Notes: generated from the sequence alone by a model not told the origin. Numbered from the stretch's first letter, positions 3,001 through 63,109 are shown. The stretch is DNA of 64,000 nucleotides from Psammoneis japonica (GCA_008632985.1 QPGO01000002.1:620001-684000), one strand, 5' to 3'. Program-made: numbers and translations.

Positions 3001-5580
3001 AAATGACCCAGTTCTTTTGCTGGTGATGATGTGCCTTTCTCCCCTCTCCTGTCCACTGGGTTGCATTCAGGTGTGCCACTGCCCAGTGCATGTGCCTGTG
3101 GACAAGAGTTGGACATTGCACATTTGACAAAACCTCCAAATGCTTTCAAACATGTGAAGGTCTGTGTCATGTCTAGTTCTTTTTGGACATGGGCAATTGT
3201 GGGTCATCAAGTTGGCAAAACCTCCATGTGTTTTCTTCCGGTCACAGTGGAAGCAAGAACAAACCTGAAGGAGTTTTGTCAGAATGACCACTTCACATGC
3301 ATGCAGGGGTCCATCATTGAGCATTGGCAGTTGGCTGAGTTGTCTTTTTGCTGATCTGGCTTTTTTCAACACATCTCAACTTGCCCACATCCCCACATCC
3401 CTTGCCCTTTGACTGCATCCTTCCCAGCTGCTCTGCAGGTCTTTGTTGCCCTGTCTGAGATTCGCAATGTCTTGCACCCCTTGACCTCCTCCACATGGAG
3501 CCAACACATGCCCCACAGGAGCAGATTGGGGGGCATTGCCATTTGTGCTGTTCTTGTCACTTGCATTGGAGTGGAGGAAACAAGGTTCAGTCAAACAGGG
3601 TGCACTGCCCTCAGCGACCCTCCAACTCTTTTGCAAACCTCACAGTCCCTCTGCTCTTTGAGGCAGCACAACATTCCACCATCAAAGCCACCCAACCATG
3701 CTGGATGAGCTCTGTGGATGCTCCCAATCCTTGGCCTCTTCCAACTTCTGTTGTCCCTGTCCTTGCCCCTTCTTCAGTGTTTTTGAAAGGCAAGAAGGTG
3801 GCACAGTTGTTGACACTGGGAAACAAAGTCAAATTCTGTGCCTTCCTCCTGATTGGAAACACTCAATGGTGGCACACACATTTAGACTTGGGACAATGGA
3901 CATGTGGTGCTGCTTTGGACGCACATTGAATTTCTCATGTGTGCATCTGCTTCATGGATCAGTGTGCAGTCACCTGCCAATGGTGGTTCTCTGTCTTGGT
4001 TGTCTGTTGACAAGAGCCACCTTGATGGGTGTTTGAACAATGACCTCACACATGTTGTCCTCCATGTGAAAGCTGGCCAATCAGTGGGAGATGCATTGTG
4101 TTGTGCATCCCATTTTCTCTGGGTGCAGGAGCCAAGCAGTGCAAGCAATGTCTCAACAGCCACCAAGGCAGACAATGACTGCAGTCAACTCAGGGAAAGC
4201 ATCTCAGATGATGGAGAAGAGATTGCAGCACAAATCAGCAAAACACGCAACCCCAAACCTTGCATCCAATGCAACCTCTTTTGGTGTCTCAGAAAAGACC
4301 AATCTCAGGGAAGTGGGTGATGCAGAGAGAGCACCTGTGCACAGCCTGACAAGTGCTGAGGTGTGGGAAACATGGAAGTCATGGCAAGGACCCCTCAAGG
4401 TGACTGTCACACATCTGATGAAGACCCTGATGACGCCAGCCATGGGCAAAGCAGAAGCATTGATGACTTCCCCTGCCCCCCTGCCACTGTGTCAAGCAAG
4501 CCTCAATCTCTGTGGAAAGGAAACATTGATGATGGTGGCATGCAGCCTTGTGTTCCATCTCACAGCACCTCAAGATCAACAAGGCTTGATCAAGACATTT
4601 TGCTGCCTGTTGGCCATGCAAGAATCTCTGACTGGAATGGGAGCATGGCCTTCATGGAGTGCATCTTCACAGATGATGTGGCCAGATCACCACAAAACAT
4701 CAGGCATGACCAAAAGCAAGTCTGCCGCAGTTCACAAAAAAGCCAGTGGAGTGCAGTCAAGGCTTCCCAGCAACTGCTCTGGAAGAGCAGACAGATGAAA
4801 AGAGCACAGCTGGAGCCACCATGACAGAAATTGACAACAAGAATGGACAAAAGCGAAAGACTGAAACTCTGATGCAAAACAGAAATGAAGAGAGCAAGAA
4901 CAGAGACGACACAAAAAAGCATTGGCGCCGTGGCCTTCGCCAAGCATGCCCATGCTGGTGCCTGTGACAGCAAACCATGATCATGCACTTCTTGGCCTTG
5001 TTGTCACAATCGGGGGGGGGGGGGGGCAAACACACATGTTCTGGCAAAGCACACTTCTCATTCTTGGCATCATCAGCCTGCCATCATGATGCCGCTCAGT
5101 TTGCACGACACCCCGGGGTGACACCAGAGCGCCAAAACATGACCCCCAGGTTTAAAAGGAGCCCCAACAAAGTGGCACTGGTCACCTGCTCGGGGTCCAA
5201 GAGGAAAATCTCGACAAGTCTTTGCACCACATCCAAAACATTGCTGCTTGCTCATGTCGTGATCCAAGGACACTTGGTCTTTCAAAAAAATTCGCTGGCA
5301 GCCAAAGGCAGATCGACAGAAAGCCTTGATCTTCACCACAGCAAAATGGGATTTTCTCTGGATGGCCCTTTAGGGCCTTTTGTATCAAGGCTGTCATGGC
5401 TGCATTGTGCCTGTCTGGAAGTCCTCGTCTCATGGAAAAAGTCCTTGCTTTGACGGAATGCTGAGGATGATCTCTCATGGTGTCGATCAACTTGCTGCCG
5501 GTATCATCTATGGACGACTGTGCTTTTTCTAGCTCAATTTCAAAGCAAGAACAACGCAAACCACACCAAACGCAGCAGCG
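1..5580. mobile_element. TpA/CpG-depleted degenerate repeat domain 1 (transposon relics, runs off the window start)
   Basis: About one TA and no CG seen in the first 600 bp, with strong CA/TG excess. ORFs in all six frames are nearly Tyr-free and rich in Cys/His/Trp/Met. CpG reappears from about 4900 while TA stays rare until about 5580. Confidence 0.75.
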
Positions 5581-14929: not shown

Positions 14930-15900
14930 TTGCCGCACAGAGAACAGACGATGATGCAGTCGAAGTCGCGCGCATCGCGTCCGTCAGCCAGATCTGCGCC
15001 TGTCAGAGTCAGATCAGACGATGCACCCCAGTGTGTGTGGGCTTGAGATGGATGGCGGTGGTCGAGAGTTGACTAACTGTCATGCACAAAGCACAGCACG
15101 CTCCCTCTGTTTTTTTTTCTTTTTTCTTTTGGACAGTTTGGTCTCCTTTTTTTTGACGTGCTCTCTGGCCAGCTGCTCTCTGGTTGTTCCTTCTTTTTCT
15201 CTTCCCCTGAGCTGGCGCTGCTCCTCTCACCAAGAACAAAAGAGCTCACAGAGAGATCCAGGGTGGGTGCCAACAACCCGGGCAAGCAGGGCTTTCCAGC
15301 TGCTTGTGAAATTTTGCACAACAAACAAAAGAAAAGAAGCACTTGTGCACGTGCCTCACATTGTGGGGTCATTTGGAGCAAACTGCATTTTGCCCAATGT
15401 GACATCAGTGAAGCAGAAAAGCAGAAACAGCAGCACATTGTTGTGGGTCATTTCCAATGGCCTGGCCTTTGAGAGCAGGGCAATGCTGCTGGCACGGAGC
15501 AAGACACCACAGAAAATCTTGGGGATTTGCCTCTTCTCTCTGCTGCTGCTCATGTGTGCCGGCGCACTTGCTGGCAGAAAGAGATCAGTGCCCAAACTCG
15601 GGGGAGAGAGGTGAGTTTGTGTGGTTGTCAGTCTGTCGATGATTCAGGAAGGCAGGGCCACCAGGTGGTGTCGCATCGCACCGGCATCTGTCGTCGCATC
15701 GCCTGTGCAAGCAAAAAAACGGTCTGTCCTCTTCCAACCGGTCTGTCCTCTTGCAAGAGCGAACTGTGTAAAACCACTCTAAGAAGGGCTTCCCGTTGTT
15801 GCACATGCAAACCGTGTCTGCTGGCATCGGTCAGAAGGTCAACAGAGATCTTTGCGAAAACAGCGGGCTAAAAGAGTGTTGCATCATGGCACAATTGGAG
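14930..15900. mobile_element. TpA-depleted domain 2 (repeat relic, overlaps the left end of a MITE)
   Basis: Almost no TA. CpG is retained at the edges and lost around 15150-15500. ORFs here are largely Tyr-free. Confidence 0.65.
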
Positions 15901-26239: not shown

Positions 26240-28200
26240 TTCTTGTGATGGTGTTGTTCGCTTTTGCTGTTTGTTGTTGCCGTTCTCCAGTTCATGGTTC
26301 ATGTCATCGTCGATCGTCGAAAGGCGTGTGAGAGTGACGCACAAACACACAGGGAGTTGCATGAAATGTCAAAATTTTCATTTTTCCCTGCAAAAACGCA
26401 CAGAATGTCAGAGAGACCTGCCTGCACGTGAGTGCCGCCACAGTCTGCACGATGCTGCGAAAGTTTGTGCACTTGCCACCAAAACGCTGCTCGCACTTTT
26501 TGCCAGGGGACATGCCACAGACACACAATGTTGCATTTGGCTGCAGGACAAATCCTGTGTTTTTGGGGCTCTGTTTGATTTGACAAAATGTCGAAATTCC
26601 ATGGAAGGTTTCTCAACAATTGCCTTTTTTCCCAACCAGTGCTGAGACAAAATGCCCCCAGAAATGCAGGTGGTTGTGTCTTCACCAGACCCCGCCAAAA
26701 TTTCTCGTTGAGAAGACAACCCACTGGATGGAATGAGAATGTTTAAATGATGTTGCACAGTGCGTGAAAAATGACAACCTGCACTCACTCAATTGGGTTG
26801 GCATGGTGACATCAAGCACTGAAATGAACGACAAAACGGTGCGACAATCGATGATGACGACACCTTCTATCGGTGCCTGCCTGTGCGCTCATTTTCCACT
26901 GCACTCAAATTTGTACATCCACACATACATCATAAGCAGTTGCCATGAGCACATCACGTTGTCGGTCACGGCGTTTCTGCACGCATGATGATGCGCATGG
27001 CACCGCACGACTGCAAGAGACGCCGTTGAGTTCCCTTCTCGATCCCGAACTCCGATTTGAACCAGTCACGACTGTCTCAACCTCATCGCTTCGTGCGATG
27101 GTACAATTTCAAATTCAAACCCGCCAAATAGCTCCAACCGCCAAAACCAAAAAAGGCCTCTTGGGGGGGACTGGGGCTGGAGACTATTTTGGATTGTTGT
27201 CGTTCAAGATTCCCTTGCATGCCGTTCCAAAAGCGTTCCAAAAGCGTTCCAAAAGCGTTCCGAGAACGTTCTCATGTGCACTAATTCACGCGGAAATCAA
27301 ACTTTGGAGCCGGTCAATTCGCCAATGAGACATGTGATGCATTGCAATCAGTGCACTGTTGTTAGAACCATTTGAGTGTGGCACAACAGTGTAAAAGTTT
27401 AACAGATTATATGGATTTATTGCAAAAAGGTGCACCCGTCAAAACAGGTTTCTATTTTCTCTAAGAAAAAGAACGGCTGGCAGAAGTCTCAACAATTTTG
27501 AGTTGCAGTGGCTGTGAGTTGAACTGCGAGGGTGTGTTGTAACTGCCAGTGTTGTTTGACAACAAACCACATCTACAACAACCGCCAACAGCTCCAACAC
27601 GGAAATGCCATTCGACGAAATGGGCATTTCGTCATTCCCGTGTTTCCACCGTTCCGGGACCGCACCAAAAGCGTTCCGAAACCGCACCAAAAGCGTTCCC
27701 GAAGGGAATCTCTCTAAAAGGCCTAACATCAAAACATTGTTTTTAGACGTTGGAAACGAATGAGAACCCTGCCCGATGATGCATGGAACCATCAATCCAC
27801 CTGCGGCAACAAAAACACTGCTGTGTGGCAACAGCGCGGCATCAATCATTTTAGCACAGTGCAAAATGTCAAATGCGCAACACACGACTGCACTGCTCAC
27901 CATGCAAATGCGCCTGCCCAGAGCCACAGTAGATTGTCTTGCAAGGACAGTCATTCAGAGGCAGACAAGATCGGAATGGATTTGGAACCAATGGGTTCGC
28001 GTCACACTTGAGCACTTTGCAGGACACACAGCAGTGTGCGAGTTGTGGGGCCTTCTTCAAGATGAAGGCAACCTTTCTCATGGGTTCCTGCCCACTCACT
28101 TGTTGTGTGCCCTTGTTTTCTGAATCTGCATTGTTCTGAAACCATTTTGCCGGGAATCTGTGGTGGAGCACACGAAGACACGACAAGAAAATGGTTTTGT
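26240..28200. mobile_element. TpA-depleted domain 3 with short internal repeats (repeat/TE relic)
   Basis: TA is rare and CpG partly retained. An 11-bp unit ccaaaagcgtt is repeated at 27223-27261 and again at 27650-27700. Confidence 0.6.
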
Positions 28201-28715
28201 GTCGGAGTGGAGTTAATTGTAAATCTGGACTTGTTGCGTACCATCATTCCAATCTCTTTTTGAAAATCAACGTACTGGCATTAGCTTCACCATCTTATCA
28301 TCTTAGATTGACTGGTAACACAGGTTTATGGATGATAATGGCATGCACGGTGACGGTGGACGGCACTGACTTTCGCTTCGCATCAACGAACCATCGCCGC
28401 GTTCGCCGTTCGACCCCATCTTCTATCTGGTGTCTGGTGTTCGCATAGCCCAAAATGCAACGTTTTAGGGGATGTGTAAAATGAATTATCGTCACGAAAA
28501 AACACGAAAAACCACGAAAAACAGGGAAAAACGAAAATTTCGACATTTCATGCAACTCCCAGACAAAATTTGGCGCATGCGTCATCCCACCTTTTATTTT
28601 CGCGCGGGAAAAGATGACGTGAGATTTCCCACCGACATCACGACCAAAAGCAACAGCATCTTTCTCGTTGATGCGGCTGGATAGGCAAAAGGAGGCAGAC
28701 AATTGGCAATTGACA

Positions 28716-38708: not shown

Positions 38709-39882
38709 GCTGATTTTGGGTGGTGTGGGAACGATAGTATTGTCATTGCAACGGGTTCACACACTGTACTTGTCAAAACAACGGCACACCCAGAAACTCG
38801 CCAATCATGGCTCCGCGCCTCTCATGCTTTTTTTTTTTGCGGCGAGAACTAGAGAAAAGATGTTTTGACGTTTTTCCCCCTAAATCTGACGAAACCATGA
38901 CGGTCAGACTTCCACGTAGGATTTGTACAGCATTCTACGCAATGCGATCAACATTCAACATGGACCATGACGGCGGCGGATGCGTGCTGTCGTTTGTGCT
39001 TTGATGCTGAAAGTTTGATGCGTTGTCGTCATTACACGCTAGCTGCAGCGTGCCAATGTCATCGCATGTCGAAAGCACAGTGAAACTCGCAAAGATAGTG
39101 CACACGCTCTGAATGTCAAGACAGAAACAACGACAGCAATTTTTTCTCAGAAGAGAGCTCAAGACGAACTGTTTTTGAGCCCAGGCAGTTGCAACAAGTT
39201 CTAGAGAGAGATTCCGGCGCAGCTCTTTTTCTTCGACAATCCCAAAGATTTAAATTCCATTACATCCATCAGCTCGGTGAATGTTTCTGCAGAGCGTTTG
39301 GAAAATGCAAAAGACGAGGTCCGACACAATCACAAAAGAGCCTCATGGATGGAGCGGATTTGCGCGTGGCAGGTTTTGAGCACGAGAACTCTTGATCCCG
39401 CTTTCTGCAGTCATTGGCAGCAACATTGATGAAAGGTTTATCTTTTCATTAGGGTGCTCGATGTTGTATTGTTGTTTGATCCCTTGTTGGACATCGAGGT
39501 GTGGACAGTCAGTGTCGACACAGCAGGTGCACATGGTGGTCTCGCGTCAAAATAGACGGGAAAAAAGCGCTCTTTAGCACAATGGTACGAAGGGTCGACA
39601 AGCTTTCCATTTGTTTACTCCTAAATAGCTTGGAATCATTAGCTGATTGCGATGATCCCGAATAAGTTGGACTTGGGCATTGCGGCGATAAGTCGTAGCG
39701 ACATGGCGACGGCCAGTCGCCCAATTGTGAATCATTCGACACGACTCCAATTTGCGAACCCTTCAAAACGCGAAGCGCATCGGCGGTGGCCACGGCGCGT
39801 GGACACTCTCCTTGCGGCACGACTGTTATTGTCACGATACACAGTAATACCAATCAAAAATCCAAGAAATGCATTTGGACCT

Positions 39883-42145
39883 ATGAGCAACATGAAGCCA
39901 GCCTTGTTATTAAAGGATAGACAAAAAAGCAGCAAACCCTTTGTGTCTATCAATCCCTTCGAGCCTCGACCGGGGCATTATCTGTCTTGGAACGGTGTTG
40001 ACGTGAAGGTTTCACGCCGGCAAAAGCACCAGCATGACACATTGCACATTCTTTGTAACCTTTCAGGGGTGACAAAACCTAGCGAGCTTACTTGTATCAT
40101 GGGGGAGAGTGGCTCAGGCAAGACAACGCTGCTAGACTTCTTGGCGGGGAGGCTCGCATCATCCGTCAGCAAGAGGGGTATGGATGTCAAAGGAGATATT
40201 TACATGGATGGTGAGAAGATCGATCCAACATCAATAGCTTTCCAGAGAAAGGTAGCCTACACGGAACAGCATGATAACATATTTGCCACTGCAACTCCCC
40301 GCGAAGCCATCTACTTTGCTGCAAGGTTGAGACTTTCTCGTACGATAGGTGACGAGGACATTGCCGTACTGACGGACTCGATTCTCGACGAACTGCATCT
40401 GTCCGAAGTGGCTGACTCACTCATTGGAGGAGATCACCTCAGAGGATTGAGTGGAGGAGAGAAACGCCGTGTCGCGTTAGGTGTTCAGCTGGTTATCCGT
40501 CCCAGTATGCTACTCCTGGACGAGGTGACGTCTGGTCTTGATAGTAAAAATGCCGCTTCAGTGATCATGTCCTGTAAGAAAGTAGCGGAAAGTGGCGCCA
40601 CAGTCATCATGGTGATCCATCAGCCGAGCAGCGATATATTCAGTATGATGGACAAACTTATCCTACTGGAACGAGGACGCTGCATGTACAATGGGGCAAC
40701 CTCGGACGTTCCTGCATATTTTGAACTTAGAGGTTTCCCCGTCCCGGCTCACTACAATCCTGCAGATTGGATTATCAAGGTGCAGCTCGAGATTGAAGCA
40801 TCAGGCTACCTTTCCGTTCAATTAGGAAGTGACGACAATACTGCTGTATCAATGACAAGAAGAACTGGGAGCTCAAGTGACACTGAAGAGTTTCAGCGCG
40901 TCTCTCTTTGGAAGGAGACAGCCGAACAGGTCCGTCGAGACACCAAGAATCTTACTCGAGACGGCATGGGTCTGCTGATCCGATTTGGGACACTTACTGC
41001 CGGATCGGCGCTTCTTGCAATAGCGTACGCAGGTGTCGGGTCGGACTCTCTGGATAGTGTGTTGAGTTTCTCTTCCCATGTTGGAGCACTCTTTCTGGTT
41101 CTTGTTAGCAGCCTCATCATTCTGCAGCTCACGATCGTGGACTTCAGCTTGGTTCGCGAAGTGTATGTCAAAGAGCTGAAGACCGACCACTATCGTATTT
41201 TCTCACGTACGTCAAACTCTCATCGCTTTCTCTTTCTTGTACAATCTCTCGTCTAACGATTCTTTCTATCCACTTTCTCCTTCAGTCGGTCTCACGAAGA
41301 CTTTGTACGAGGCATGGTCGACCTTTTTGCAATGCCTTATGGTTATGCTTGTCATATATTGGAGCTTAGATCTCAATGGACGGTTCTGGTACTTACTTCT
41401 CGTCCTTTATGCTGTTACTATGGCGAACCTGTCTTCCGCCATTGCTGCAGGTTGTGTGACGTCGGTAAGTGAACCGCATGAGGCTGTCAGAATCAGATGA
41501 AAATTGCTTTCCATGTCAAAACTAAACGATTTCTTGCATGTAAGTTAGAACCCCGCAGATGCCAAGGAGCTAATGCCGATGGTCCTTTTTCCCCAGCTTC
41601 TCTTTTCCGGCTTTTTCGTCAACATTGAAGATATGCCAAAATGGATAGCGTGGATGCAGTACTTGATGCCTATGACCTATGCTTTCCGGCTCGCCATTGC
41701 CGAGGAGTTTGCCGATTGTTTTGACGTCGGTTCCGTCTTTTGTATCGAATACCTTGAGTCACAGGATGCAACTGGCTCCGAGGACGCGGAATACTGGATG
41801 GCCTTGCTAATCTTATTCGCAGGAGTCCGGTGCCTGGCCTTTTGTTGCTGCGTCGCCGCGCAAGGTGCAGCAAGATCTTGGGGCACTTCAACAAATGGAG
41901 ACAATAAAAAAATAGTAAGCAAGCCGAGGCAAACATGCAAGAATGAAACGAACTGTTATTTTCCTCGTAGGATGAAAGATATAGAAAGAAGTAAGAAACG
42001 TCCTATGGCGCGCTATACGACTCCCGCTCTTTTTGTTTGCTACGTTGTGCCAATTGCTACACGTATGCATTTGCACTGGTCGCTTACTTTTGAGGACATG
42101 GAGACCGTCATCAACGTTTCGAAAGTCACTTCCCCATCCTTATGA
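39883..42145 (+). CDS. ABCG (White-type) half transporter (introns 41207-41285, 41465-41548; 3' end uncertain)
   Basis: Walker A GESGSGKT, LSGGEKRR, LLLDEVTSGLDS, IHQPS, NPADW, and an ABC2 membrane domain (PQLLFSGFF, W..W..Y). Confidence 0.9.
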
Positions 42146-42599
42146 CCACATCTCCTTTACGATCATGCTTGAATGGTTTCCGTTGTGTAGAATGTTATGC
42201 AGTTCCCTGGGGGAAAAGAAATTTGCGTTGGTCTCGTTTTTCCATGGGCTCGGGCTCCGACGACACAATTCCAGTCAGGATAGCTCGTCCACCATGCATC
42301 CATGTGTTTTTGTTCCACTCAAAACAGGCAATTGATTTATTGATGATGACAGACAGTTCAGAGCAGTCATTGGATTCATGCAGCAGGTGTGCCGCCGCAT
42401 GCTGTCATGTTGTCATGTTGATGAGGGTCGAAAGACTGATGATTCGTTCGGGCAACAATGGCAGTTGTCAGTGCACTGCAGTTTCTGGTGGCCAGAACGG
42501 CGTGACGGTGAGTTGCTCATTGGACAATGCTTGTGAAGACACGTTTGGCAAGAGCAACAGGTGACACAAGCTGCTGTGACATCCAGAGAGTGGAGGGAT

Positions 42600-43240
42600 G
42601 GAAGTGTTGTCCCCCCAACAGCAGCAGACTTGAGCTTCCAAACTCCAGAGTGAAACGACCCTGTGATGGCACCAACCAACCTGACAACTGCAAACTGAGG
42701 GCACTGGTGGTGTCTGGTGGACCCCAGGCAACACTTTGAGAACTGTGGTTGAGCATTGCAAGGTCTGTCTTGTGGTGTTGTGGCCCCATGTCACCTCATC
42801 TCCAACTGCACAGTGGGAGCAGACTTCTTGACTTTCCCAACTCCAGAGTGCAGGGACCCCATGTGGAACCAACCAACCTGACAGCAGCAAGAACAAGGGC
42901 ATTGGTGGTCTCTGGTGAGCTCTTGACACTTTGGCAACTGTGGTTGGATCATGCAAGGTTGATGTTGTGGTGTTGTGGCCCCATGTCACCTTGTCCCCAA
43001 CAGGAGAAGACCAAAAGAATGCCTTGCAGTGAAAGGCTCCCATGATGGCACCAACCAACCTGACAGCTGCAAGCTGAAGGTGTTGGTGGTCTTTGGTGGG
43101 CCCCAGGTGCAACTTCAAGAGCTGTTGTTGTGCATTGCAAGGTTGATCTTGGGGCATTGTGGGCCCATGATGTTGTCTTGTCCCTCGTCTCCAACAGCAG
43201 CAGACTTGAGCTTCCAATCTTGAGAGTCAAAGGATCTTGT
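42600..43240. repeat. Tandem array of about 190-200 bp units (about 3 copies)
   Basis: Recurring gcagactt..ccaaactccagagtg..catgatggcaccaaccaacctgaca..ccccagg..cattgcaagg..gccccatgtcacc. Confidence 0.85.
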
Positions 43241-43344
43241 GACAGCGCCAGTCAACAACTGTGTGCTCCGAAGATGCCAAGACAAGAAAATGTGACAGCA
43301 CTTTTCTCAAGAGCTTGAGACCAGTTGTTTGGCAGTTGCAGCGA

Positions 43345-44135
43345 ACCAAAAATCCAAGAAGCGCGCCTTTTAGCTTGGTGCCATCATGGCCACGCTGCAA
43401 GAAAAGCCAGCAGGGGCTTTTTGCTGTCAAAGGACAAAAGAGACAAAAGGGCAACACAAACCCTTTTTGTGTCTGCCAGCCCCTTTGAGCCTTGACTGCT
43501 GGGGCAGCACCATCTGTCTTGAGAGTGACGGTGTTGACAAACAGATTTCACACTGGCAAAAGCACCAGCACCAAACATTGCACACACGTTCTTTGCAGTC
43601 TTTCAGGGTCAGGAGGAGGGGCAACACCCAGCAAGCTCTTGCTTGTGTCATGGAAGAGAGTGGCCCAGAGAGACAAGACAATGCTGCCTGGCTTGTCAGC
43701 AGGGCCACACTCCCACATCATCCACTGCAAGAGAAGTGCGGACATCTGGAGAGACACCATTTGTGCAAATGGTGAGAAGATCAACCCAAAATGCAGCAGC
43801 GCTTTCCAAAGAAAGGCAGCCTGCACCATGGAACAGCATGACAACATGCTTGCCACTCCTGCCCCAATCCCCACAAAGCCACTTGCTTTGCAGCAAAGTT
43901 GAGACTTTCCTGCACAACAGGTGATGACAAGAATGTTGCCAAACTGGCAGATTTGATGCTTGATGTGAGCTGCACAATCTGCCTGAAGTGGCTGACTTGC
44001 TCATTGGGGGGGAGACCAAACCTCAGAGGATTGAGAGGAGGAGAGAAACACTGCACCACATCAGGTGCATGGCTGGCTGTCTGCTCCAACATGCTCCTCC
44101 TTCTAGATGAGGTGATGTCTCTGGTCTTGACAGTG
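43345..44135 (+). pseudogene. Hypermutated partial copy of the ABCG gene (matches about 39853-40545)
   Basis: Shared anchors: aaaaatccaagaa, ggcaaaagcaccagca, ggtgagaagatc, ggaacagcatga, gttgagacttt, cctcagaggattgag, tctggtcttga. It has many frameshifts. Confidence 0.9.
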
Positions 44136-45599
44136 CAGCACATCTGGAACCAAGAGGCTGCACATGCAGCAGAACAACCATGGATGTTCTTGAACATTTT
44201 GAGTGGAGAGGTTTCCCTGCCCCAGCTCACTGCAGTCCACAGCTGCTCTCATTTGGAACTGAAAGTTGCTGAACAAGAAGCCTGTGTTCTTGTCAAGTGC
44301 TCATTCATGGTGAACAAATGGATTTCAATGATCAACCAAATTGGCAAAGCAGGAAACCAGACTCAAGGAAATTTGGTCTCTCACAGCACATGGGCTCTTG
44401 AAAAGATTTGTTTTGAACCAGGCCACAGCACAACAACCACGAAGGTTGGGACATCAATGGTCAACAAGTTGGCAAAGTGAAAAACCACAATGAATGCAAC
44501 ACATGGCTCATTTCTGTGCACCCACACCCACAAGTTGATCCAACCAATTGTTGTTGTTTGTTGGGACTGTGGAGTGTGTCAACAATTTGAAAGTTCTTCA
44601 TTCATCAGTTGGCTTGCATTTTGCACCTTTGGTTTCCAACAATGTTTGCTTTCTGCTCATGCAATGTTTGACAACATTTGGCACATGCTCTCATGCTCTC
44701 ACTCCATTCTGTCATTTCATTGCCTTTGCTCCAACTGTTCTTCAAGCTGCCACCCCATTGTCTGCTGCCCCGTTGTCTCTTGGCTGCAGTTTGTCTTGCA
44801 TCTTGGTGTTCTTGGCTGTGCTGGCACTGGGCAGTGTTCCAATCTTTTGTGTTTCAAAGAGAGTCAATTTTTGTGACAGATTTTCATTGCAGGATGTGAC
44901 AGCAAAATCCCTGCCAGAAGACAACAGAGAAGTTGTTGGAGGTTGGCATGTTTTCTTTGGCAAGTGTGATGGCACAATGCTGCTGTTTTTGCCCACCTGT
45001 GTGCAGTGTTGAAGCGCACTTTGTTTCTCATCCTTGGCTGTTTTTGTCAACTTGTCTGAGGTTCAAGAAATGAAAAAGCACAAAAGGAAAAGCTGCCTGC
45101 TCCTGCATCACTCTTTTGACTTGTTGCCCCCCTTGTCACTCTTGTTGCCTTTCCCAAAGCATTTTTTGTTGGCATGTGCAGAGTCTTGGTGGATGCTGCT
45201 GGCATCTTCCTTCGATGTTGTCATTGTTCGTGTGCTGCTTGGGTGCATCCTGTGTTTTGTGCTCTTTTGTGTGGCAGTGATGTGCATTTTTGGTGCTGTG
45301 CTGAGCCAGTTGGCCTGGCAATCATTGCTTGCATCATTTGCAAGTTGTCAATTTTTTTGCTTTTTGTTGCAGCATTCATTTCAAAGTTTTGTGTTGTTTG
45401 AATCAACTTCAGTGAGTCATTTTGTTGGCATGCATTGCCAACACATTTTGCTTGTGAGTTTTCTTTCATTTTGCAGCTTTGCATGTTGAGTGGTCTTTCA
45501 ATCAGATGCAGTGCACCTGTTTTCAAAGAAGGTTTGTGTCTCAGTTTTTGTGATCTCAGTTGGCTCTCTCATCAAAAATGAATTTTCACATGTGTGCAT

Positions 45600-46620
45600 G
45601 GCAGTGCCAACAACCAACCCAATGAGCAATGGCAGAGGACATTGGTGGTCTCCTCTGGCAGGCCCCAGGCAACACTTTGAGAACTGTGGCTGGGTGTTGC
45701 AGGTTGACCTTGTGGCCTGGTGTTGTGGCTCCAAATTGCTCTGTGTCCAACAGCAACAGAAATGACCCCATGACAGCACCAATCAACTTGACAACAGCAA
45801 GCAGACCGAGGGCACTGGTGGTGCATCTGGCAGACCCCAGGCAAGAACACTTTTAGAGCTGTGGCTCTGAGCATTGCAAGGCTGATGTTGTGACCCTGGC
45901 CCGTGTCACTTTGTCCTCCCCAACAGGAGCAGACTTGAGCCTCCAAACTCCGGAGTGAAAGGAGCCCATGATGGCACCAACCAATCCACAACTGCCAGCC
46001 AGCAAAGAACACTTTTGGTTTTTCATGGCCCCAGGTGACACTTCAAGAACAGTGACTGGACATTGCAAGGACTGTCTTGTGGCATTGTGGCCCCATGTCA
46101 CCTTGTCCTCCTGCCTCAACTGGAGCAGACTTGAACTTCCAAACTCCAGAGCAAAAGGATCCCATGATGGCACCAACTGGCCTGGCAACTTCCAGCAGAT
46201 GATGCTGTTGGGCCCCAGGTGACACTTTGAGAACTGCTGTGGCTGGAGATTGCAAGGTTCATCTTGTGGCACTGTGACCCCATGTCACCTTGTCCCTGGC
46301 TGGAGCAGACTTGAATGTCTTCCCAACTCCAGAGTGAGAGGATCCCATGGTGGCACCAGCCAACAACCCAACGTCAGTGTCTGGTGCTCCCCAGGTGCAA
46401 CCTTGAGAACTGTGGTTGAGCATTGCAAGGTTGGTCTTGTGGCATTGTGTGGACCCAAGTCTCCTCACTCTGAACAGCATTGGCAGATTTGCCTTCCCAG
46501 CTCTAGAGTGCAGGGGTTCCCAATGACAGCAGTGCCAAGTGCCAACCAACCCAACAACTGCCAGCAGAGGACACTCGCTGGTGGCCTCTGGTGGCCCCAG
46601 GCAACAGACTTGTTCCAGAC
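45600..46620. repeat. Second array of the same 190-200 bp unit (about 5 copies)
   Basis: Same anchors as 42600-43240, in the same orientation. Confidence 0.85.
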
Positions 46621-47926
46621 TCAGGTGAGCACACATGTGAAAAAATGCCCATTTTTGCATGAAAAGCACTGTCCAAACTTTCAGTGCTGCCATTTCAACA
46701 TTTGTGTTGTTGTGAGTGGCGCAAATGATCCCATGCATGCATGTGCCCATGCATTCAAAGCTGATAATGGGCCAAGTTGATGATTGTTGGGTGGCACCAC
46801 AAGATGAGAGCTTGGTTTTCCAATGAGCAATTCATGATCACAGTCATGTGCAAATGAAAACACACAAAGCAAACATTCTCATGTGCAAATTTGCTCTTGA
46901 ATGGGCAATGAATTGCACTTTGTTTTTGCACATCAACACAAGTTGCTCTGAACAGATTGAACAAAACATTTGTTGATGACACAGTGCAAGAAGACATGAG
47001 AAGCAATGAAACTCTGCCCACACAATGGTGTGTTGACTTCAAACCCTTTTTCACTGCTTTGTCAACATGACAAACAACTGAAACACTTGCTTCAGTTGAG
47101 GCCATGGAGGGAGTGCACATGGCAATGGAAAAGAGCTTGTCCTTGGAGGCAAACTGTCAATGAAATGAGGCTCACTTGTTGTTGCTGACAGGTCAGTCTT
47201 CTTGTGCTGTGCTGCAGCCTGTGCCAACAATTGTCTTCATTGTCGTCATCAATGACACAGACTGTGTGAAATGCTGTGGTCATGATTGTCGTGTCATTCA
47301 ATTTCCCACAAGGTTGAAGAAAGTGGGCTGTCATGGTCACTTGAAGCCAAGGCTGTTTTGGTGATCAGTTGGCTTGAATTTCATTGACTCATTTGATCCA
47401 TGAACATGACAACTCTAACAAGGTGTCAATGAAGTTGAATGAAAAGCACAAAACAGTTGTTTTTTGTTTAAAAAGGCATGTTTTTCCCACCCCAACAAGG
47501 GGGGAATGGGGGCTGTGCAGCCAATGCCTTGCTGTGGCCAAAGTTGTGAGAGGCATCAACAAAAAATGACTTTGACAAGCTGTGCACAAATCCAGGTGCA
47601 AAACATGTGCCCTTTGACATCCCCACAATTGCTTGCATGAGGGTGCAAATGTGCCACACTTCACAAAAGTCCACTTTTTTGACTTGTGCATGAAGACACA
47701 TGACAGTCATTGTGACAACTTTTTTCTGGTCTGTTGAACTCCTTTTTCTCTGTCAGGCATGATCGGCAGTTCCAAGAACTTTTGCTCGGTGTTTGAATTT
47801 TGAGTCCGAGCTTCCCAAACACATTCCTGTTGTGCACGCCACCATTGCAGGATGCCAATTTGCAAGGAGCACCACGGTTTTGCAGGATGCCGATTTGCAG
47901 GACGCACCACGGTTGGAAATTGCTGT

Positions 47927-48390
47927 GGCCTCTTGGCCCCAATGCAATGACGGACATTGAGCTCCAACATTTGCGCAACACCTTGCCAGATGTGGCTGTC
48001 ATTCAGCAGATCAAAGAGCATCTCTGGCTCTTGGAAACATCATTGCAACCAATGCACATGGCTCTTGTTCATCCTGATGTAGACCGAGAGACAGAAGATG
48101 TGATTTTGGATGTTTTGGGTGCAGAAGTCTTTCAACAGACAGTTGGTGGGCAAGCGCTTGTGGGGAGTTGTTCAAAATTTTCAAACCAAGGCGGCATGGT
48201 GCATCCTCAAACAACTGTGGAAGACATTGAAAAGCTTGGTTCACTGTTGCAGGCACCACTTGCAGCAGGAACTGTAAATCGTGGGTCAGATGTGTTGGGT
48301 GGAGGCATGGTGGTCAATGATTGGTCTGCTTTTGTGGGGTTGGACACTGCCAGAACAGAAATTTCTGTCATTGAGAGCATCTTCAAGCTT
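47927..48390 (+). pseudogene. EIF6: 5'-truncated, hypermutated eIF6 gene fragment
   Basis: [64 protein letters not shown]. There are compensating frameshifts in the SALGN segment. Confidence 0.9.
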
Positions 48391-50430
48391 TTGGGACAGA
48401 GGACAACAGCGCCAACAATTGAGCATTGTTTCAAATGTGAGGAGCTCTCTGATCGATCAGCTTTCGCAAGTGACGAACACGGTGATGCAAAAAGAGCACT
48501 TTAGAATGATCAAAAACACTGAGTTTAAGTGCAGTTTTGCAGCACCAAATTGCACTTCACAACCATGCATCAATTGATGCAACCATTCAAACTGAGGCCC
48601 TTTCAACAGAGAGCAGTGCCAAGCCTTCATCCAGAGAGCAGTGCAGATGTTGTTGAGGAGCAGGAACTGACTGACTTTTTTGCTCCCCCCATTGAGCTGC
48701 ACACCATGATCACAGCTGCAAAAAGGAACTCTGGAGAGGAGTTTAAACTGTGATGTTGTCAGTTTTCTTCTTGTGGTTTCTGGCTTTTACTTCATCGCAG
48801 CTTTTTGGAGCCTGTCTGGTGAGCACTGGCATGCAGTGACTCATTCCCTCAGCAATCTCTTTTGTCCAATCTCACTTCATGCTGCATGCTCAAAAATTGC
48901 TCCAGACATTTCCAGTGCTTCATCGTTGGTCTTCTCAGTCACCTCACACCATTTGACAAGAGCAACAATGCAGCATTTTGAATTGCATCACCCCGGCTTG
49001 AGCAGGACCTCTCTGACTTGGAATCACTGTTCACCTGCTCGTGTTCGTTGTCAAGAATCTGCGTCTTGTTAAAGACCAAATCAAGAACTCTCTCAATCCA
49101 CTGCTTGATGGAGATTGTGCCTTCTTCAGCCCCCACACCAAAATTCTGTCCCATGACTTGATTGAAGGCGAGTTCGCAGCATTCATTCATTGTGTTGAAA
49201 ATCTTCTTTTGCCACACTCGTCCTTAAATTCGTTGTTGGTCAGCTTCCGTCCACTCGATTCCCTGAGTGCCGCTTGGAGCACGAGTGTGGTGACAGTCTC
49301 TTGGTTGCTCTTGTTGCCATCAACCTCACACTGCAGAGAGAATGGTGTGACGTGATCTCAGATGTTGACTTCAAAGTGGCTTCGAACGCCCTTTGCCCCG
49401 CCAAGTTCAACAACAATGTGTGACTTCCATGTCCAGGTCGCCACTGAAAAGCGGGAGAGTTCTTGTGCCCACAATGTGCTGCAGCCCAATCTCAACGTCA
49501 TCCACATCTTCACTGACCAGGCGTTGCAGAACTGCAAGGAGAAGTGGCTTGACCATGACTTCGGCGACTCTGCTTGATTGTCAACTGGCGACGGTCCTCA
49601 TTCTTGATGGCCTCATGCACACCTGCTGCCTTTGCAATGTCCACAACCAAGAGAAAAAAATTAGCAAATGAATCATCCCAATCCCTGCCAGTGCAATCTC
49701 GCGGTGCCCACCATTGAGATTTTGAGACAGTTTCCGGCCCTTTCGCTTTCCTTTGAACTTGGCTGTTTTTGGCTCTTTTTTGCTTCCTGTGCCTTCGTTG
49801 AGTTTCTTGTGGAAACAAATGGTCTTCATTCAGCTGGCTAAAATCAGTTGCATTGCAGAGTCCTGCTTTTGCTTTTCTCTCCTGTGCCAACGGCGCCAGT
49901 TTGTCTCGGCTTCTGTGCGCCTGTTTTTGTTGTCGTCGCTTTTCTCTTTTCTGCAGTCGTCTTCAGTGTTTGCACCTGGCTGCTGGGGCCCTCTGCTCTA
50001 GAGCAGCCACTCTCTGTTCTCTCTCCAGGTGCCAGCGTGGGGCAGAAAGGAGTTTGTTTCTACCGCAAGCTGCCGAAGAGCACACCTGAGACCCAACAGC
50101 TGAAACAGCGCGTGATCCCAGCGTGATCAACGCACGTTACCGGTAAAATTCTTTGAAAAACTGATTCCATCCAATGGTGGCGATGTGTATCAACTAAACA
50201 GAGCTTATTCGCCACCAACTTTTCTGCTCAAGACTGAACATAAAATATATTCAAGCATGAATACAAATGAAATGGTTGAAACGTCACGGTGTATCTTCTT
50301 CGTGTCAAGATCCGAAGGCAAAAAGAACAAAGAAGCCCAACAAGTTGAATGAGTGCGGCATCTCTTGTTGGTGCTACGAACAATTCGACGCTTGGATCAC
50401 ATAAAGAATCTGTTGAGAGGTCTGGGTAGT

Positions 50431-55751: not shown

Positions 55752-56101
55752 GTTGCGTTTAACGATGGGGAGAGTAATGACAGCGACGAAGACTTTGCCA
55801 TGTCGCTCTTCAGAAATACTGTAGATCTTCGCAACGGCAAGCAACAACTGAAAAAATCTTTTGTGCGATCTTTACAAGCCTGTCCGCCCGCCCCTCCCCT
55901 CGGCCCTTGGGTGCAAGTGCAGTGAGTGTTAGCGCGACTGGATGATTCTGTTCGCGAACACGACTGAAGAATCCGTCCGTCCTTCGCTTCGTACGTACCA
56001 GTTCCACAAAAATCGGCCATGAGCCATGACCCATTGAACATCATCTGAAGGCAGCGGCTACTCTAGAGAGAGCTCACAGTATGGAATGCCGAACAATAGC
56101 G

Positions 56102-58771: not shown

Positions 58772-59788
58772 CTAGTATCCCTGACGTTGATTGCGTTCGC
58801 GCTCAAGCCGCAAGCGATACCATTCATCAGGCTCAAAGTATTCGGGAAGCTTATCTTTCCAGTCAGTAAAGATGACGTCCTGCAATTTATCTCGTGAATG
58901 CTCGTCGATCTTTTTCGTCGTGGAGTCGCTGCCCATAGATTCCTTGAAGGCAGTTCACTGTACAATTCGTATGGAAACCGGAAAGCTCGTTTCACTAACG
59001 ATTCGGCCTTTTCCGCCTTTGCTTGCAAAAACCGGTTTTGTTTGGCCTTGTGATTCACTTTCACAGCAGCATGGAGAAGATGTGAAATCATACTACTGTT
59101 GGCAAACACAGCGTCAACGTCGGTAGTATCGAGAGTCCTTGGTAAGAGGGATTTGGCCGACTTCCAAGTAGTCGATTTCGCTACGGCTTCTTCCCTCAGA
59201 AATGGAACCATCGTCGAGATTATGTCGAAATCAAACAAATCCGGGTAAAATTGCAGCATTTGTACCAATTTGCCGAGAGCGGCTCTTTGCGTGTGTCGGA
59301 GATTGTACAAGTCGCTTGAAGACAAATGTTTGTAGAAAGTGCGCATTGACCTTGACGAAGAATTGAGAAAATCGATAGACCTCAGAGAGTCAGCAAGGAC
59401 TTTGTCACATTCGTCCAACATTGTCTTCATTTGGAATTCGTGAAACCACGGTGTGAGAACTTCAACATTGTCCTTTGTGATCTTTGCCGTGCGCGCCGTG
59501 TCGGGATCAATGAAAGAATGGAAAGAGCTTCCACTCTTTCGGATCCTTGTCGGGGAATGCAATCCTGGATTCTTCGCTCTCCTTCATGCCGCTGGCGAAC
59601 ATCGTGTCAAAGTATTCGCTGGCGCAACTCAACACTACTTTGTAACACGGAAATTCGGTGGCATCTTTTCCCACAGCAACCACAACGTCGGGATCCTGGC
59701 TGCGAAGGCGTTTTGCAGGTAGAGGATCACCTGTGTGATCCTTTGAGCTTGGATTTTCCGCTTTTCTTTTTAAATTATCCGCCTCCAT
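58772..59788 (-). pseudogene. BTB protein paralogue with two frameshifts (about 59520 and 58945)
   Basis: Homologous to 54510-55751 along its length, but the homology switches frame twice (KEWKLF / HSFIDP; YSELP / KIDEHSRDKLQDVIFTDWKDKLPEYFEP). Confidence 0.8.
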
Positions 59789-59834
59789 CGTGAAATCCGT
59801 GGGAAGCCTCCTGTCAACTGGAGAGTTGTTGTGA

Positions 59835-60020
59835 CAATTTGAGAGAGCTGCTTCGAAGAATCGCACCGAAACCAAAGAACAATCGTGTCACCCTCAGATT
59901 TTGACGCGACTCACCCTTCCACGCGCAGGCACTGAACAATTTGAGAGAGCGGCTTCGAATTACACTAAAACCAAAGAACAATCGTGTCACCTTGAGGTTT
60001 TGACGCGACTCCTCGCCTTT
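59835..60020. repeat. Two tandem copies of a unit of about 100 bp
   Basis: acaatttgagagagc.gcttcgaa..aaaccaaagaacaatcgtgtcacc..ttttgacgcgactc occurs twice. Confidence 0.85.
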
Positions 60021-60029
60021 TCCTGCAGA

Positions 60030-62030
60030 CGCCACCAGCAATCGGCTTCATGCCAGAGTGCACGGTGCAGGGCCCTGCACACTCCAGGGCACCAGGGCCT
60101 GGGGCTCTGATGCCACTCACTCACTCACTCACTCACTCACTCACTCACAAGTCCTCTCAAGAAAAAAGCAGGGCTGCCATCTTGGCAGTTGATGAGAGGA
60201 GAAGACTGCGATGTTTTTTGCAAGTTGCACAGTGTCTTTCGGTGTTGCTGCAGAGACTCAACACTGGATCTGAGATTCCACCCAGCTCACAAACTCCTTT
60301 TAATTCCGATCTTGAACGAGCACTTCGCAGTTCTCTGCTCTCGTGACCGACTGTGCAACACGTGGTTGACAGTCGCAAACGTTCTGACGAACGGCGCGCG
60401 CTTCGTCACCAGACCCAGAATTGAGCTTTCGGCATGCTGGCGACTCTTCATTTGGGGAGCCTGTCAAGGGCACACATGACAGCTCCAAAAGGTTGTCCAC
60501 CGCTCAGAAAGAGCTGCAGTGCCACGAATTGCAAGACAATTGCGCGATTCACGTGCCCGAAGGGTGATTGTTGAAATTCGAGCTTCGCGCACGTAGAGCC
60601 TGTAGAAAATGCACCAGCCAGCCCGAAGCTCCGATTTTCGTAGATCACGCAGGAGAGCACCACAAGGTCATTTGATGAAATGACTGGGACCAAAATGAAA
60701 ATTTTGACACCACATCACACGCAGAATTGACATCTGCGCGAAGGGAGAATGTTGCTTCGGGCAACGACATTCCACCTTCGGGCACGTGAATCGCGCAATT
60801 GTCTTGCAATTTGTAGCATCTCATCGTCGATGGCATTGGTTGGTGCTTGGTGCACGTTAATGGTGGTCGTGCGCGCGGTCGATGGTCGCGTTTTAGTCTT
60901 GGATGCGACACGAAGCGGAAAACAAAAAAAACGCACGCGGTGCATGCTGGCGCTGTTACATTGTTGCTGGGTGTTGTTGTCTCCTGCGATGGCATGGAGG
61001 CATGCACAATCTTGTAACCACAGAATCAGCCCCAAAAGAGTCGGCCATCACAGGCTACAATCGCCACTGTCAGGGCCCTGTGTGCCGAAACTCCGAGGTC
61101 TGATCTTGCTTTCCGGATGGACAGCTTGCCAAGTTTCATTTTTGGCATGCCAGCAGAAAGTCAACATGCTTCTACATGCGACAGTTTCTCACACATGCAT
61201 GCGAACATCACGAACTCTGCGAGCTCCAACACGAGAACAACACAAAGCACGAAGAGTTTGCGAGAGAGCGAATGGCGTTGCTGACACACTGTGAATGTAA
61301 AGTAAAAATGCCAAAACATTGTTGTTGCACAACATGTGGATGGTTGGTCTGTTGGCAGACAAAATGTGTCGCCTTCAAAGCTGGTCAGAAGCTTCAACAG
61401 ACTGCACAGCTGTTTGCATGTTGTTGGGTCGTAACAGAGGCCTGCGTCCCCCACTTTGAATCATTCTCAAATGATGACCACAGCCAACTCCTCCACCAAT
61501 GTTGCTGTCATCTCCTGTGTCAAGTTGCTGTTCAATTCACACAATGCTCTCTGCAGCAGGAGAGCAAATGACGAGACTTCTAGCTCGTCCAACAAGAGGA
61601 CAATGCCACCGACTCAACAACTCTCCAGCATTTCTATCTCAGTCATAGATTTGTCATGTGACTGGTCAACATCCACAACCACAAATGTTTTTGGAAGTGT
61701 TGCTTGTTTGCACCCACAAAGCAGAGCCCTCCAAACTGCTGCTGCATGGAGAAAAGGACGACAAAGCAGCCAGTCACAGTTCCTGGATGAGCGACCTTTT
61801 CAGAACAAGTCCTCCTTGGGATCAGGCTGAATTCACTGTCATGCCACCAATTTGAGCTCTGCTGAGTCGTCCATGCCGGTTGTGTTTGCCACAGTGCTGC
61901 TTGAGTAACTTCCAATGGGGCCAACGCGTCATTTGCGGTTCTTGCATCCACAGAAACACATTCGGGGTGAGTCCTCCTTGGCCTCCAGCTAACTCCACCG
62001 TCATGCCACCACATTGAGAACTGCTGAGTC
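60030..62030. mobile_element. TpA-depleted domain 5 (CpG largely retained); contains a (CTCA)n microsatellite at about 60114-60148
   Basis: TA is scarce, ORFs are Tyr-poor, and the domain contains a mutated MITE. Confidence 0.65.
60520..60818 (-). mobile_element. MITE copy A (TpA-mutated)
   Basis: TIRs of about 44 bp (aattgcaagacaattgcgcgattcacgtgcccgaagg); inverted homologue of 62625-62935. Confidence 0.9.
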
Positions 62031-62364: not shown

Positions 62365-62624
62365 TTTCTTGAAGCGATTGTCAGTTACATTCTTGAACTC
62401 CACGGTAAGGGAGATATGATGTGGAGAGGTAGCGTCAGAGTACAAACAACGCCGTCGTATCATCACCATTGTGAGTGCGGCATGCACGGGTAGGTCGCCG
62501 TACAAATTTGAATGAGCTGATGGGTCCAACTGCCATTGCACTACAAACGTACGTAGAAACTGGTATGTACAGATCTACACAACTTTGTACTGGCATACCA
62601 AAAATGAACTCGGCAAGCTGTCCA

Positions 62625-62935
62625 TACTACAAATTGCAAGACAATTGCGCGATTCACGTGCCCGAAGGTGGAATATCGTTGCCCGAAGCAACATTCTCCC
62701 TTCGCGCAGATGTCATTTCTACGTATGATGTGGTATCAAAATTTTCATTTTGGTCGTCTAAATCGTCCCAGTCATTTCATCAAATGACCTTGTGGTACTC
62801 TCCTACGTGATCTACGCAAATCGGAGCTTCGGGCTGGCTGGTACATTTTCTACAGGCTCTACGTGCGCGAAGCTCGAATTTCAACAATCACCCTTCGGGC
62901 ACGTGAATCGCGCAATTGTCTTGCAATTCGTAGTA
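62625..62935 (+). mobile_element. MITE copy B (unmutated; TA at both ends, as for a Tc1/mariner target site)
   Basis: tactacaaattgcaagacaattgcgcgattcacgtgcccgaagg ... ccttcgggcacgtgaatcgcgcaattgtcttgcaattcgtagta. Confidence 0.9.
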
Positions 62936-63109
62936 CAAGTAGTAGCCTACGGTACGCACGCACGCTACGCACGCACGAGGGGAGCAGGCAGGAGGCCTTT
63001 TATTTTGTCGAGCCTCCTCCGTCACAATAGTCACAACATGCCATCAATCTCATAGCCATCATTCACTCTTGAATTCTGTACCAGCGAAGTCCTTGGTTGC
63101 TGATTGGCA

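Follow-up and report, generated by a model that had tools for sequence, protein, structure and literature searches.

Surviving and mutated TpA sites point to a 3'-pyrimidine preference in a probable TpA-directed hypermutation of repeat and pseudogene DNA in Psammoneis japonica

We analysed a stretch of 64,000 nucleotides from Psammoneis japonica (GCA_008632985.1, QPGO01000002.1:620001-684000), hereafter the window, to which all counts refer. Its ordinary genic DNA is interrupted by domains in which the dinucleotide TpA (written TA in counts) has nearly disappeared, the main one at 42290-50130, and the few TA left there keep a biased set of neighbours. By comparing two pseudogenes and a miniature inverted-repeat transposable element (MITE) with proxies of their ancestral state, we find that the A of TA became G preferentially before a pyrimidine. 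We consider it probable that the bias of the survivors is the residue of a near-saturated, TpA-directed A:T-to-G:C hypermutation of silent repeat and pseudogene DNA.

Results

TpA-free and TpA-poor domains of the window

The window was compared with two sequencing runs: X1, a DNA run, possibly of the sample from which the window was assembled, and X2, with contigs that show RNA-like splicing. The regions that stand out by their composition, and the repeat family found in the main one, are as follows.

42290..50130, unstranded: main domain erased of TA and CG, between ordinary genic stretches
1..5100, unstranded: second erased domain, extending past the start of the window
15050..15700, unstranded: small erased block with one TA and reduced CG
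26300..28250, unstranded: partly TA-depleted element with CG nearly intact and a 39-nt inverted repeat (26352-26390 / 28522-28560)
59400..62000, unstranded: partly TA-depleted high-copy repeat region with CG largely kept, recognised by composition and X1 depth
42607..43260, unstranded: 195-nt repeat family (TRF period 195 at 42629-42991), with more copies at about 45600-46600

In ordinary DNA the ratios of observed to expected counts (o/e) are 0.56 for TA, 0.98 for CG, 1.20 for CA and 1.21 for TG. The main domain holds 20 TA (o/e 0.04), 97 CG (0.21), 839 CA (1.83) and 921 TG (1.77), for a G+C content of about 46-51%, and its borders are sharp, within about 200 bp; positions 1-5000 hold 6 TA (0.02) and 24 CG (0.08), with CA at 1.80 and TG at 1.95. 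Counted per kb and by flank (R, purine; Y, pyrimidine), 12.0 RTAY and 8.4 RCGY were lost for 21.6 RTGY/RCAY gained, and 4.9 YTAR and 11.9 YCGR for 19.4 YTGR/YCAR gained. In each flank class the loss of TA and CG thus matches the gain of CA/TG, which indicates that TA and CG were rewritten to CA/TG. The partly depleted regions are milder: TA o/e is about 0.28-0.29 in 26300-28250, with CG o/e at 0.74-0.92, and 0.15-0.17 in 59400-62000, with CG o/e at 0.92 (60001-61000) and 0.48 (61001-62000). The latter region reaches an X1 word depth of 1300-1900, against about 59 in single-copy DNA.

The erased sequence is recovered in X1, whose contigs cover 42000-42669, 43112-44302, 46808-48336, 48521-49167 and 49138-49760 with 2-5 differences each; word depth over these parts is 54-64, compared with 56-60 for the flanking single-copy genes. 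The repeat parts of the main domain reach 20-30 times the single-copy depth, and the 195-nt family (71% identity between 42607-43161 and 45911-46449 by self-BLAST) a depth of 1929. X2 has next to no depth at 42667-50003 while the flanking genes are covered, an observation that we did not use as evidence. Between 50852 and 52435 the contigs of X2, a run labelled 'DNA?', omit four GT..AG stretches of 82, 85, 71 and 100 nt; X2 therefore behaves as a transcriptome, and the histidine-phosphatase gene at about 50332-52564 has short introns.

A Pfam scan of 111 stop-to-stop open reading frames (ORFs) from the erased and partly depleted domains gave as its only credible matches eIF6 and, at the edge of 59400-62000, a fragment of a BTB domain, and no viral or transposase domain; three marginal matches below the cut-off (E 0.002-0.009) were ignored. 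For the erased domain eIF6 is the only credible match in 47 ORFs, and for 1-5100 there is none in 44, apart from a marginal one (E 0.006, below cut-off). In the Protein Atlas the 252-aa ORF 42471-43226 (minus strand) has no usable match; a representative search with ORF 4070-4795 (plus strand) gave a single repetitive one (E 4e-8, 10 short stretches) that is uninformative. These are among the long open frames of 235-252 codons at 4070-4795, 42471-43226 and 47797-48501, which erased DNA retains because TAA and TAG are removed and none is created. Pfam found no deaminase domain among the 20 window ORFs of at least 200 aa. The window belongs to a compact eukaryote, and its proteins are closest to those of diatoms, although no close species was among those compared: identity is about 40-47% for an MCM-family protein and reaches 73% for pyruvate kinase. 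The eIF6 matches are diatoms in every case with a named source.

Surviving TpA sites

TA sites were sorted by their flanks into YTAR, RTAY and half-sites, the latter comprising RTAR and YTAY, which are reverse complements of each other and so form one class. Exactly 20 TA remain in 42290-50130: 14 YTAR, 6 half-sites and no RTAY. This bears out a sequence-only reading of the same DNA, which had put the survivors by eye at about 20, two-thirds of them YTAR and none RTAY; the seven positions that it named all match ours within 1 nt. The survivors of this domain are:

YTAR: 43371, 44104, 45854, 46504, 47416, 47469, 48502, 48526, 48744, 49070, 49225, 49662, 49839, 49999
YTAY (n=3): 42338, 48788, 50061
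RTAR (n=3): 46765, 48080, 48275

The YTAR sites split into five TTAA, six TTAG/CTAA and three CTAG. Six TA survive in 1-5100 (4 YTAR and 2 YTAY), and the single one left in 15050-15700 is again YTAR (CTAA at 15074). Pooled over 13,592 bp of erased DNA, the 27 survivors thus comprise 19 YTAR, 8 half-sites and 0 RTAY. The comparison of tetramer classes with genic DNA, which the sequence-only reading had proposed, was made on 44.2 kb of the window that are ordinary and for the most part genic. The 1808 TA found there include 279 YTAR (15%), 1000 half-sites (55%) and 529 RTAY (29%), YTAR being the rarest class.

Against this baseline the pooled set gives binomial p values of 2.4e-10 (excess of YTAR) and 8.7e-5 (lack of RTAY), and 42290-50130 alone 6.6e-8 and 9.9e-4. 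A more conservative baseline, a first-order Markov chain built from the erased DNA's own dinucleotides, expects fractions of 0.32, 0.49 and 0.19 (YTAR, half-site, RTAY); p is then 6e-5 for YTAR and 0.004 for RTAY pooled, 8e-4 and 0.019 for the main domain alone. An equal depletion of RTAY and YTAR after correction for composition, which would speak against any flank preference, is thus not what we observe. The two younger, partly depleted elements are intermediate, with 17 YTAR, 31 half-sites and 6 RTAY among 54 TA (10, 12 and 5 respectively in 26300-28250; 7, 19 and 1 in 59400-62000). Among the half-site survivors TAC and TAT do not differ (4 vs 4; baselines 525 vs 475).

As a side observation, all four CTAG survivors of the window lie within TCTAG, and two of the three in 42290-50130, at 46504 and 49999, share the palindromic 8-mer CTCTAGAG.

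Direction and flank of the changes in two pseudogenes

The survivor classes are symmetric, so that only half-sites of known polarity tell which flank acts on which strand. The ancestral state was inferred from an intact ABC gene, from diatom eIF6 homologues and from a second copy of the MITE. The genes concerned are:

39652..41256, plus strand: intact ABC-transporter ORF (Pfam ABC_tran, E 4e-22), ancestral proxy
43441..44238, plus strand: hypermutated ABC pseudogene, 70-73% identical to 39919-40760
47744..48466, plus strand: eIF6 pseudogene (Pfam eIF-6, E 1e-32), in pieces in three frames

In the ABC pair none of the 32 aligned TA is still TA, 27 being now CA or TG; 31 of the 34 aligned CG are likewise CA or TG, and one is kept. 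The change at TA is therefore directed, from A:T to G:C. Its outcome according to the ancestral context is:

RTAR: CA 5, TG 1, other 1
YTAY: CA 1, TG 9, other 2
RTAY: CA 3, TG 4, other 1
YTAR: CA 3, TG 0, other 2

For the half-sites, outcome depends on context (Fisher p 0.008): 14 went the way expected if the A of TAY is the base changed and 2 the opposite way, or 12:1 on a BLAST-based realignment. The eIF6 pseudogene, which carries frameshifts and a 35-nt internal duplication (tandem 35-mer at 47845-47914), contains no tyrosine. It reads Cys at two positions where Tyr is conserved in 10/10 and 9/10 of the aligned diatom homologues; both changes are TTAY to TTGY, giving Cys and not His (half-sites 2:0). 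Its other changes are R to Q/H and V to A.

Adding the MITE described below (2:1), 18 of 21 half-sites went from YTAY to YTGY or from RTAR to RCAR (two-sided p 0.0015), i.e. A-to-G in 5'-TAY-3' or, on the other strand, T-to-C in RTA. The sequence-only reading had proposed the mirror image, A-to-G in RTA (T-to-C in TAY). The enzyme-like flank preference that it saw is real, with RTAY the first to go and YTAR the last, but it placed the preference on the wrong side. The bulk composition leans the same way as the half-sites: YTGY+RCAR gained 28.8 per kb, compared with 11.6 for RTGR+YCAY. The ratio of these product classes, 1.15 in genic DNA, is 1.28, 2.09, 1.73, 1.44, 1.46 and 1.42 in the sub-domains, 2.09 belonging to 15050-15700; it exceeds the genic value in 6/6, including two where CG is nearly intact, and three are individually significant.

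A MITE mutated in place

Two copies of the MITE lie close to each other, one in the partly depleted region and one in ordinary DNA:

60520..60818, plus strand: MITE copy A (element 60522-60816), with 52-nt terminal inverted repeats
60520-60521 (TG) and 60817-60818 (CA): target-site duplications of copy A, mutated from TA
62624..62936, minus strand: MITE copy B, TA-rich, in ordinary DNA, 93% identical to copy A, ancestral proxy

Twelve substitutions separate copy A from copy B. Ten of them are TA to CA/TG, and on the plus strand nine of these are T-to-C and one A-to-G (9/10 on one strand; p 0.02). All seven RTAY were mutated, against three of seven half-sites (two GTAG to GCAG, one CTAC to CCAC; p 0.07), as either flank rule would lead one to expect, RTAY having a favourable site on each strand. 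It had been claimed from the sequence that the four survivors of copy A are all CTAC on the edited strand and that every GTA or ATA was hit. The survivors are indeed all GTAG, hence CTAC on the other strand, but two of the six GTAG and the sole CTAC were mutated too.

Copy B has TAC at the terminus of its inverted repeat on either side. Contigs of both X1 and X2 join 60520 straight to 60818, reading T|A, and thus represent an allele or copy without the MITE, whose own TA (in the context G-TA-T) is unmutated. With TG and CA in the target duplications and TA in the MITE-less form, these two mutations at least arose here, after insertion. The mutated duplications at a still-polymorphic MITE are also the one hint at a possible locally raised rate of de novo mutation. 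At the scale of domains no strand asymmetry is seen (2/41 bins of 500 bp with p<0.05), and the products of both strands are nearly equal, 500 vs 456 in 42290-50130 and 327 vs 308 in 1-5100. The targets hit are not only the MITE and high-copy repeats but also single-copy pseudogenes of host genes.

Trinucleotide signature and a one-flank model

The ABC pair also provides the trinucleotide signature that the sequence-only reading had suggested deriving. The fraction of adenines changed to G, strand-symmetrised, is 10/19 in TAC, 11/17 in TAT, 4/12 in TAA and 2/17 in TAG, the least mutated TA context; together TAY reaches 21/36 and TAR 6/29 (p 0.003). The preference for a 3' pyrimidine extends outside TA, with 39/140 for VAY and 12/175 for VAR (V, any base but T; p 5e-7), and at position -1 there is a strong preference for T only, not for C. 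In bulk composition the A share of R[A/G]Y drops from 0.556 to 0.483 (p 4e-13) and that of R[A/G]R less, from 0.602 to 0.572; neither drops in the young elements. TA is mutated first, and non-TA A-Y sites follow slowly.

Among the differences between X1 and the window listed inside the domain (at least 31), there are 17 CpG transitions, one CA/TG pair (2 differences), 2 transversions and 10 transitions of other kinds, one of these TG/TA. In eight of the nine listed transitions outside CpG and TA, the allele with A or T stands in A-Y or R-T.

We then described survival by a one-flank model, in which the A of each strand is lost at rate k before Y and k0 before R, starting from genic densities. 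The input survival, 22% for YTAR and 2.6% for half-sites, gives a fitted k/k0 of 3.8. With this ratio 0.5 RTAY should have survived, against 0 observed, and 79% of the half-site outcomes should be of the TAY type, against 86% observed. A roughly fourfold 3'-pyrimidine preference thus reproduces the survivor ranking, so that no separate role of the base at -2 is needed.

Loss of CpG

Loss of TA runs ahead of loss of CG, the young elements having TA o/e of 0.15-0.29 and CG o/e of 0.5-0.9; CG also persists at the borders of 42290-50130. CpG transitions dominate the X1 differences listed in the domain. For this process no flank bias is significant (half-sites 10:6 in the ABC pair, CG survival 14-27% across classes). 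Most simply, the loss of CpG would be a second and slower process, the deamination of 5-methylcytosine.

A side observation concerns 59825-60025, where two tandem units (86% alike) read TA in one and CG in the other at two sites (TTAC/TCGC and CTAA/CCGA). Both bases of the TpA are changed there, which may explain undepleted CG in young TA-poor repeats.

Neighbouring features

Three adjacent paralogous ORFs with weak FUT8-like (alpha-1,6-fucosyltransferase) domains lie at 31763-36344, and a fragment of this family, at 42029-42327, sits directly at the left border of the erased domain. BTB-domain paralogues at 54510-55847 and 58672-59887 are 74% identical, the second adjoining the partly depleted 59400-62000. 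Ordinary DNA contains tandem duplications at 8197-8790 (about 300 nt, 86%) and 62022-62365 (about 172 nt, 88%).

Discussion

The data on survivors, half-sites and adenines outside TA all fit a per-strand rule by which an A after T goes to G about four times faster before a pyrimidine (5'-TAY-3') than before a purine. RTAY, having a good site on both strands, is lost first; RTAR and YTAY, with one good site, are lost next, via the TAY strand; YTAR, with none, remains. The same 3'-pyrimidine preference acts more slowly on adenines outside TA, and the process is regional and in place, on element-bearing DNA. The direction of the mutation, its dinucleotide target, the flank rule and the action in place are shown by the comparisons above. 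As to the agent, we infer a DNA adenine deaminase with a specificity like that of TadA/ADAT2, recruited to silenced DNA.

Several points weigh against this explanation. The counts come from a single 64-kb window, and the polarised set is small, 16 of its 21 half-sites belonging to one pseudogene; three half-sites go the opposite way, including the MITE change CTAC to CCAC. In the ABC pair, a change that took place in the functional copy counts with the opposite polarity, a noise bounded by the 7% at VAR. Some X1 contigs are perhaps paralogous copies, and the X1 differences are those listed. In the survival fractions genic DNA stands as a proxy for the ancestral composition of erased DNA. Finally, an additional effect of a purine at -2 is hinted at by the MITE, with its RTAY at 7/7 and half-sites at 3/7 (p 0.07).

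The earlier rule, A-to-G favoured in 5'-RTA-3' (T-to-C in 5'-TAY-3') with the base two 5' of A as the decisive one, explains the ranking of the survivors (YTAR 19, half-sites 8, RTAY 0) equally well, and the MITE can be read in its favour: RTAY were mutated more than half-sites, and CTAC became CCAC. Two of the 16 ABC half-sites fit it as well. However, this rule holds for only 3 of the 21 half-site outcomes, or 1 of 13 when the BLAST-based realignment is used; the products that it predicts, RTGR+YCAY, are the lesser gain (11.6 per kb vs 28.8 for the mirror); both YTAY tyrosine codons of eIF6 became Cys rather than His, and the adenines outside TA also follow a 3' pyrimidine. It appears clearly unlikely. 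A chemistry of thymine would keep the right flank: the T of 5'-RTA-3' would be modified or oxidised (e.g. TET/JBP-type, to bases like hydroxymethyluracil or formyluracil), mispair with G and become C. Sequence cannot separate A-to-G from T-to-C of the opposite strand, and all our counts fit R-T-A equally; besides, thymine hypermodification is associated with TpA in some protists. On the other hand, our literature search turned up no sign that diatoms have such a pathway, and TadA-fold adenine deaminases are described as preferring YAY over YAR, or YAC, on DNA (PMC12528748). We regard this alternative as rather unlikely.

The remaining alternatives have still less in their favour. TpA might be a symmetric adenine-methylation site of silenced chromatin, its N6-methyladenine being lost as hypoxanthine, so that one logic would erase both TA and CG. 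Both dinucleotides are self-complementary and erased in the same domains, and the most sensitive class, RTAY, is a palindrome. This is nonetheless very unlikely: the young elements 26300-28250 and 59400-62000 lost TA before or without CG, known eukaryotic N6-methyladenine lies at ApT and not TpA, and half-sites defined by strand, as well as mutated A-Y outside TA, agree better with a context rule for single strands than with a site in the duplex. Another possibility is that the surviving TA are new, by C-to-T or G-to-A in CA/TG, or selected as stop codons or TTAA/CTAG signals. The eIF6-like ORF does end at TA 48502, its stop codon, the four CTAG share TCTAG and two of them CTCTAGAG, and one listed X1 difference is TGA vs TAA. 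But new sites would follow the flanks of CA/TG, with about 25% YTGR/YCAR and about 23% RTGY/RCAY, where 70% and 0% are seen; as for selection, the domain holds dead pseudogenes and a single credible Pfam domain (eIF6) in 47 ORFs; and the same gradient appears in the partly mutated elements, with RTAY at 6/54 against 29% in genic DNA. We hold it to be highly improbable. An artefact of assembly or base calling at modified bases, where long reads do produce systematic miscalls, is hardly credible: X1, possibly the source sample, carries the same TA-/CG-free sequence in its contigs at a depth (54-64) like that of the flanking genes (56-60), and the pseudogenes have indels and frameshifts besides.

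Hypermutation of TpA with a 3'-pyrimidine preference, if retained, has several consequences. A saturated TpA footprint in a diatom-like genome suggests that such hypermutation is widespread among the major marine algae and no mere curiosity. The excess of TAY over TAR, visible also at adenines outside TA, is a biochemical fingerprint that narrows the search for the enzyme. The flank rule would let annotators recognise and polarise such regions, e.g. in order to 'de-mutate' pseudogenes and transposons that are dead, in the manner used for repeat-induced point mutation (RIP). Since the process replaces Tyr by Cys, changes GTA/ATA codons to those of Ala/Thr and keeps long spurious ORFs, the latter may get annotated by gene callers. 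More tentatively, and with considerable doubt, one may imagine that diatoms and chlorarachniophytes share an old defence of the SAR lineage (stramenopiles, alveolates and Rhizaria): a TadA-like TAY deaminase recruited in cis to silenced insertions and mutating them while they are still polymorphic. Combined with the decay of 5-methylcytosine, it would leave DNA nearly free of TA and CG, whose genes are inactivated by missense mutation (Tyr to Cys, GTA/ATA to Ala/Thr) and not by stops.

Comparison with known systems

The RIP of fungi acts mainly at CpA and yields TpA, AT-rich DNA and many stop codons. It resembles the present process in being regional, saturating and made of dinucleotide-specific transitions in repeats, with duplicated host genes killed as well, and the MITE changes, mostly on one strand (9/10), are reminiscent of RIP events. 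Unlike RIP, TpA is here destroyed and not made, G+C is 0.46-0.51, and TAA/TAG are not created. RIP being a C-to-T mutation (PMC2621366), it was rejected for its opposite direction, TpA being removed here. ADAR editing is similar by its A-to-G change and by its preference for U on the 5' side of that A. It acts, however, on RNA, on one strand, and favours a 3' G; ADAR-type hyperediting was rejected because both strands are hit equally (500 vs 456; 327 vs 308) and TAG is the least mutated context. Methylation-driven decay of CpG shares the change of CG to TG/CA in silent repeats (31/34 in the ABC pair), but it covers the CG half only, lags behind the loss of TA and lacks a clear flank bias.

The closest motif is that of the TadA/ADAT2 fold. 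Among DNA editors derived from TadA, the adenine base editor ABE3.1 favours YAC, and ABE8e-YA favours YA with YAY over YAR (PMC12528748); A-to-I on DNA, the 5' pyrimidine and YAY over YAR all parallel TAY over TAR here, although these known motif data come from engineered editors. The same order is found in our counts both in TA (TAY 21/36, TAR 6/29) and outside it (VAY 39/140, VAR 12/175). For the ADAT2 of amphioxus (BjADAT2) the reported preferences are GAA, where A is the target, and TCG, where it is C (PMC10354150).

A hypermutation of DNA directed to TpA was found reported only once in our literature search, which returned no diatom account: in a 2026 preprint on the chlorarachniophyte Bigelowiella natans, integrated DNA of nucleocytoplasmic large DNA viruses and virophages undergoes T/A-to-C/G hypermutation at TpA only (Mettrop et al., bioRxiv 10.64898/2026.01.13.699255). 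The preprint describes clusters poor in TpA and rich in CpA and TpG, and proposes an ADAT2-like deaminase (bioRxiv 10.64898/2026.01.13.699255). As far as its account goes, the two systems share the change of TA to TG/CA, TpA-poor clusters of kilobase size, the transposon-type enrichment, the silent DNA and a proposed adenine deaminase. The T/A-to-C/G change on TpA accounts here for 10 of 12 substitutions in the MITE and 27 of 32 sites in the ABC pair, the older pseudogene also having changes at A-Y outside TA, and the composition agrees as well, with TA o/e at 0.02-0.04 and CA/TG o/e at 1.8-1.95 in three domains. The systems differ in their hosts, since the proteins of our window are nearest to diatoms; in degree, the B. 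natans regions being described as mildly depleted (rho 0.45), whereas erasure here is about 98%; and in their targets, integrated viral DNA there, and here a MITE, repeats and pseudogenes of host genes, without viral genes found. The B. natans lines carry 231 de novo TpA mutations, and the hypermutation there goes with a locally raised de novo rate, seen over generations and in some lines only. The main text of the preprint does not contain the words 'context', 'flanking', 'trinucleotide' or 'CpG', so that neither a 3'-pyrimidine rule nor a co-erasure of CpG is given in it.

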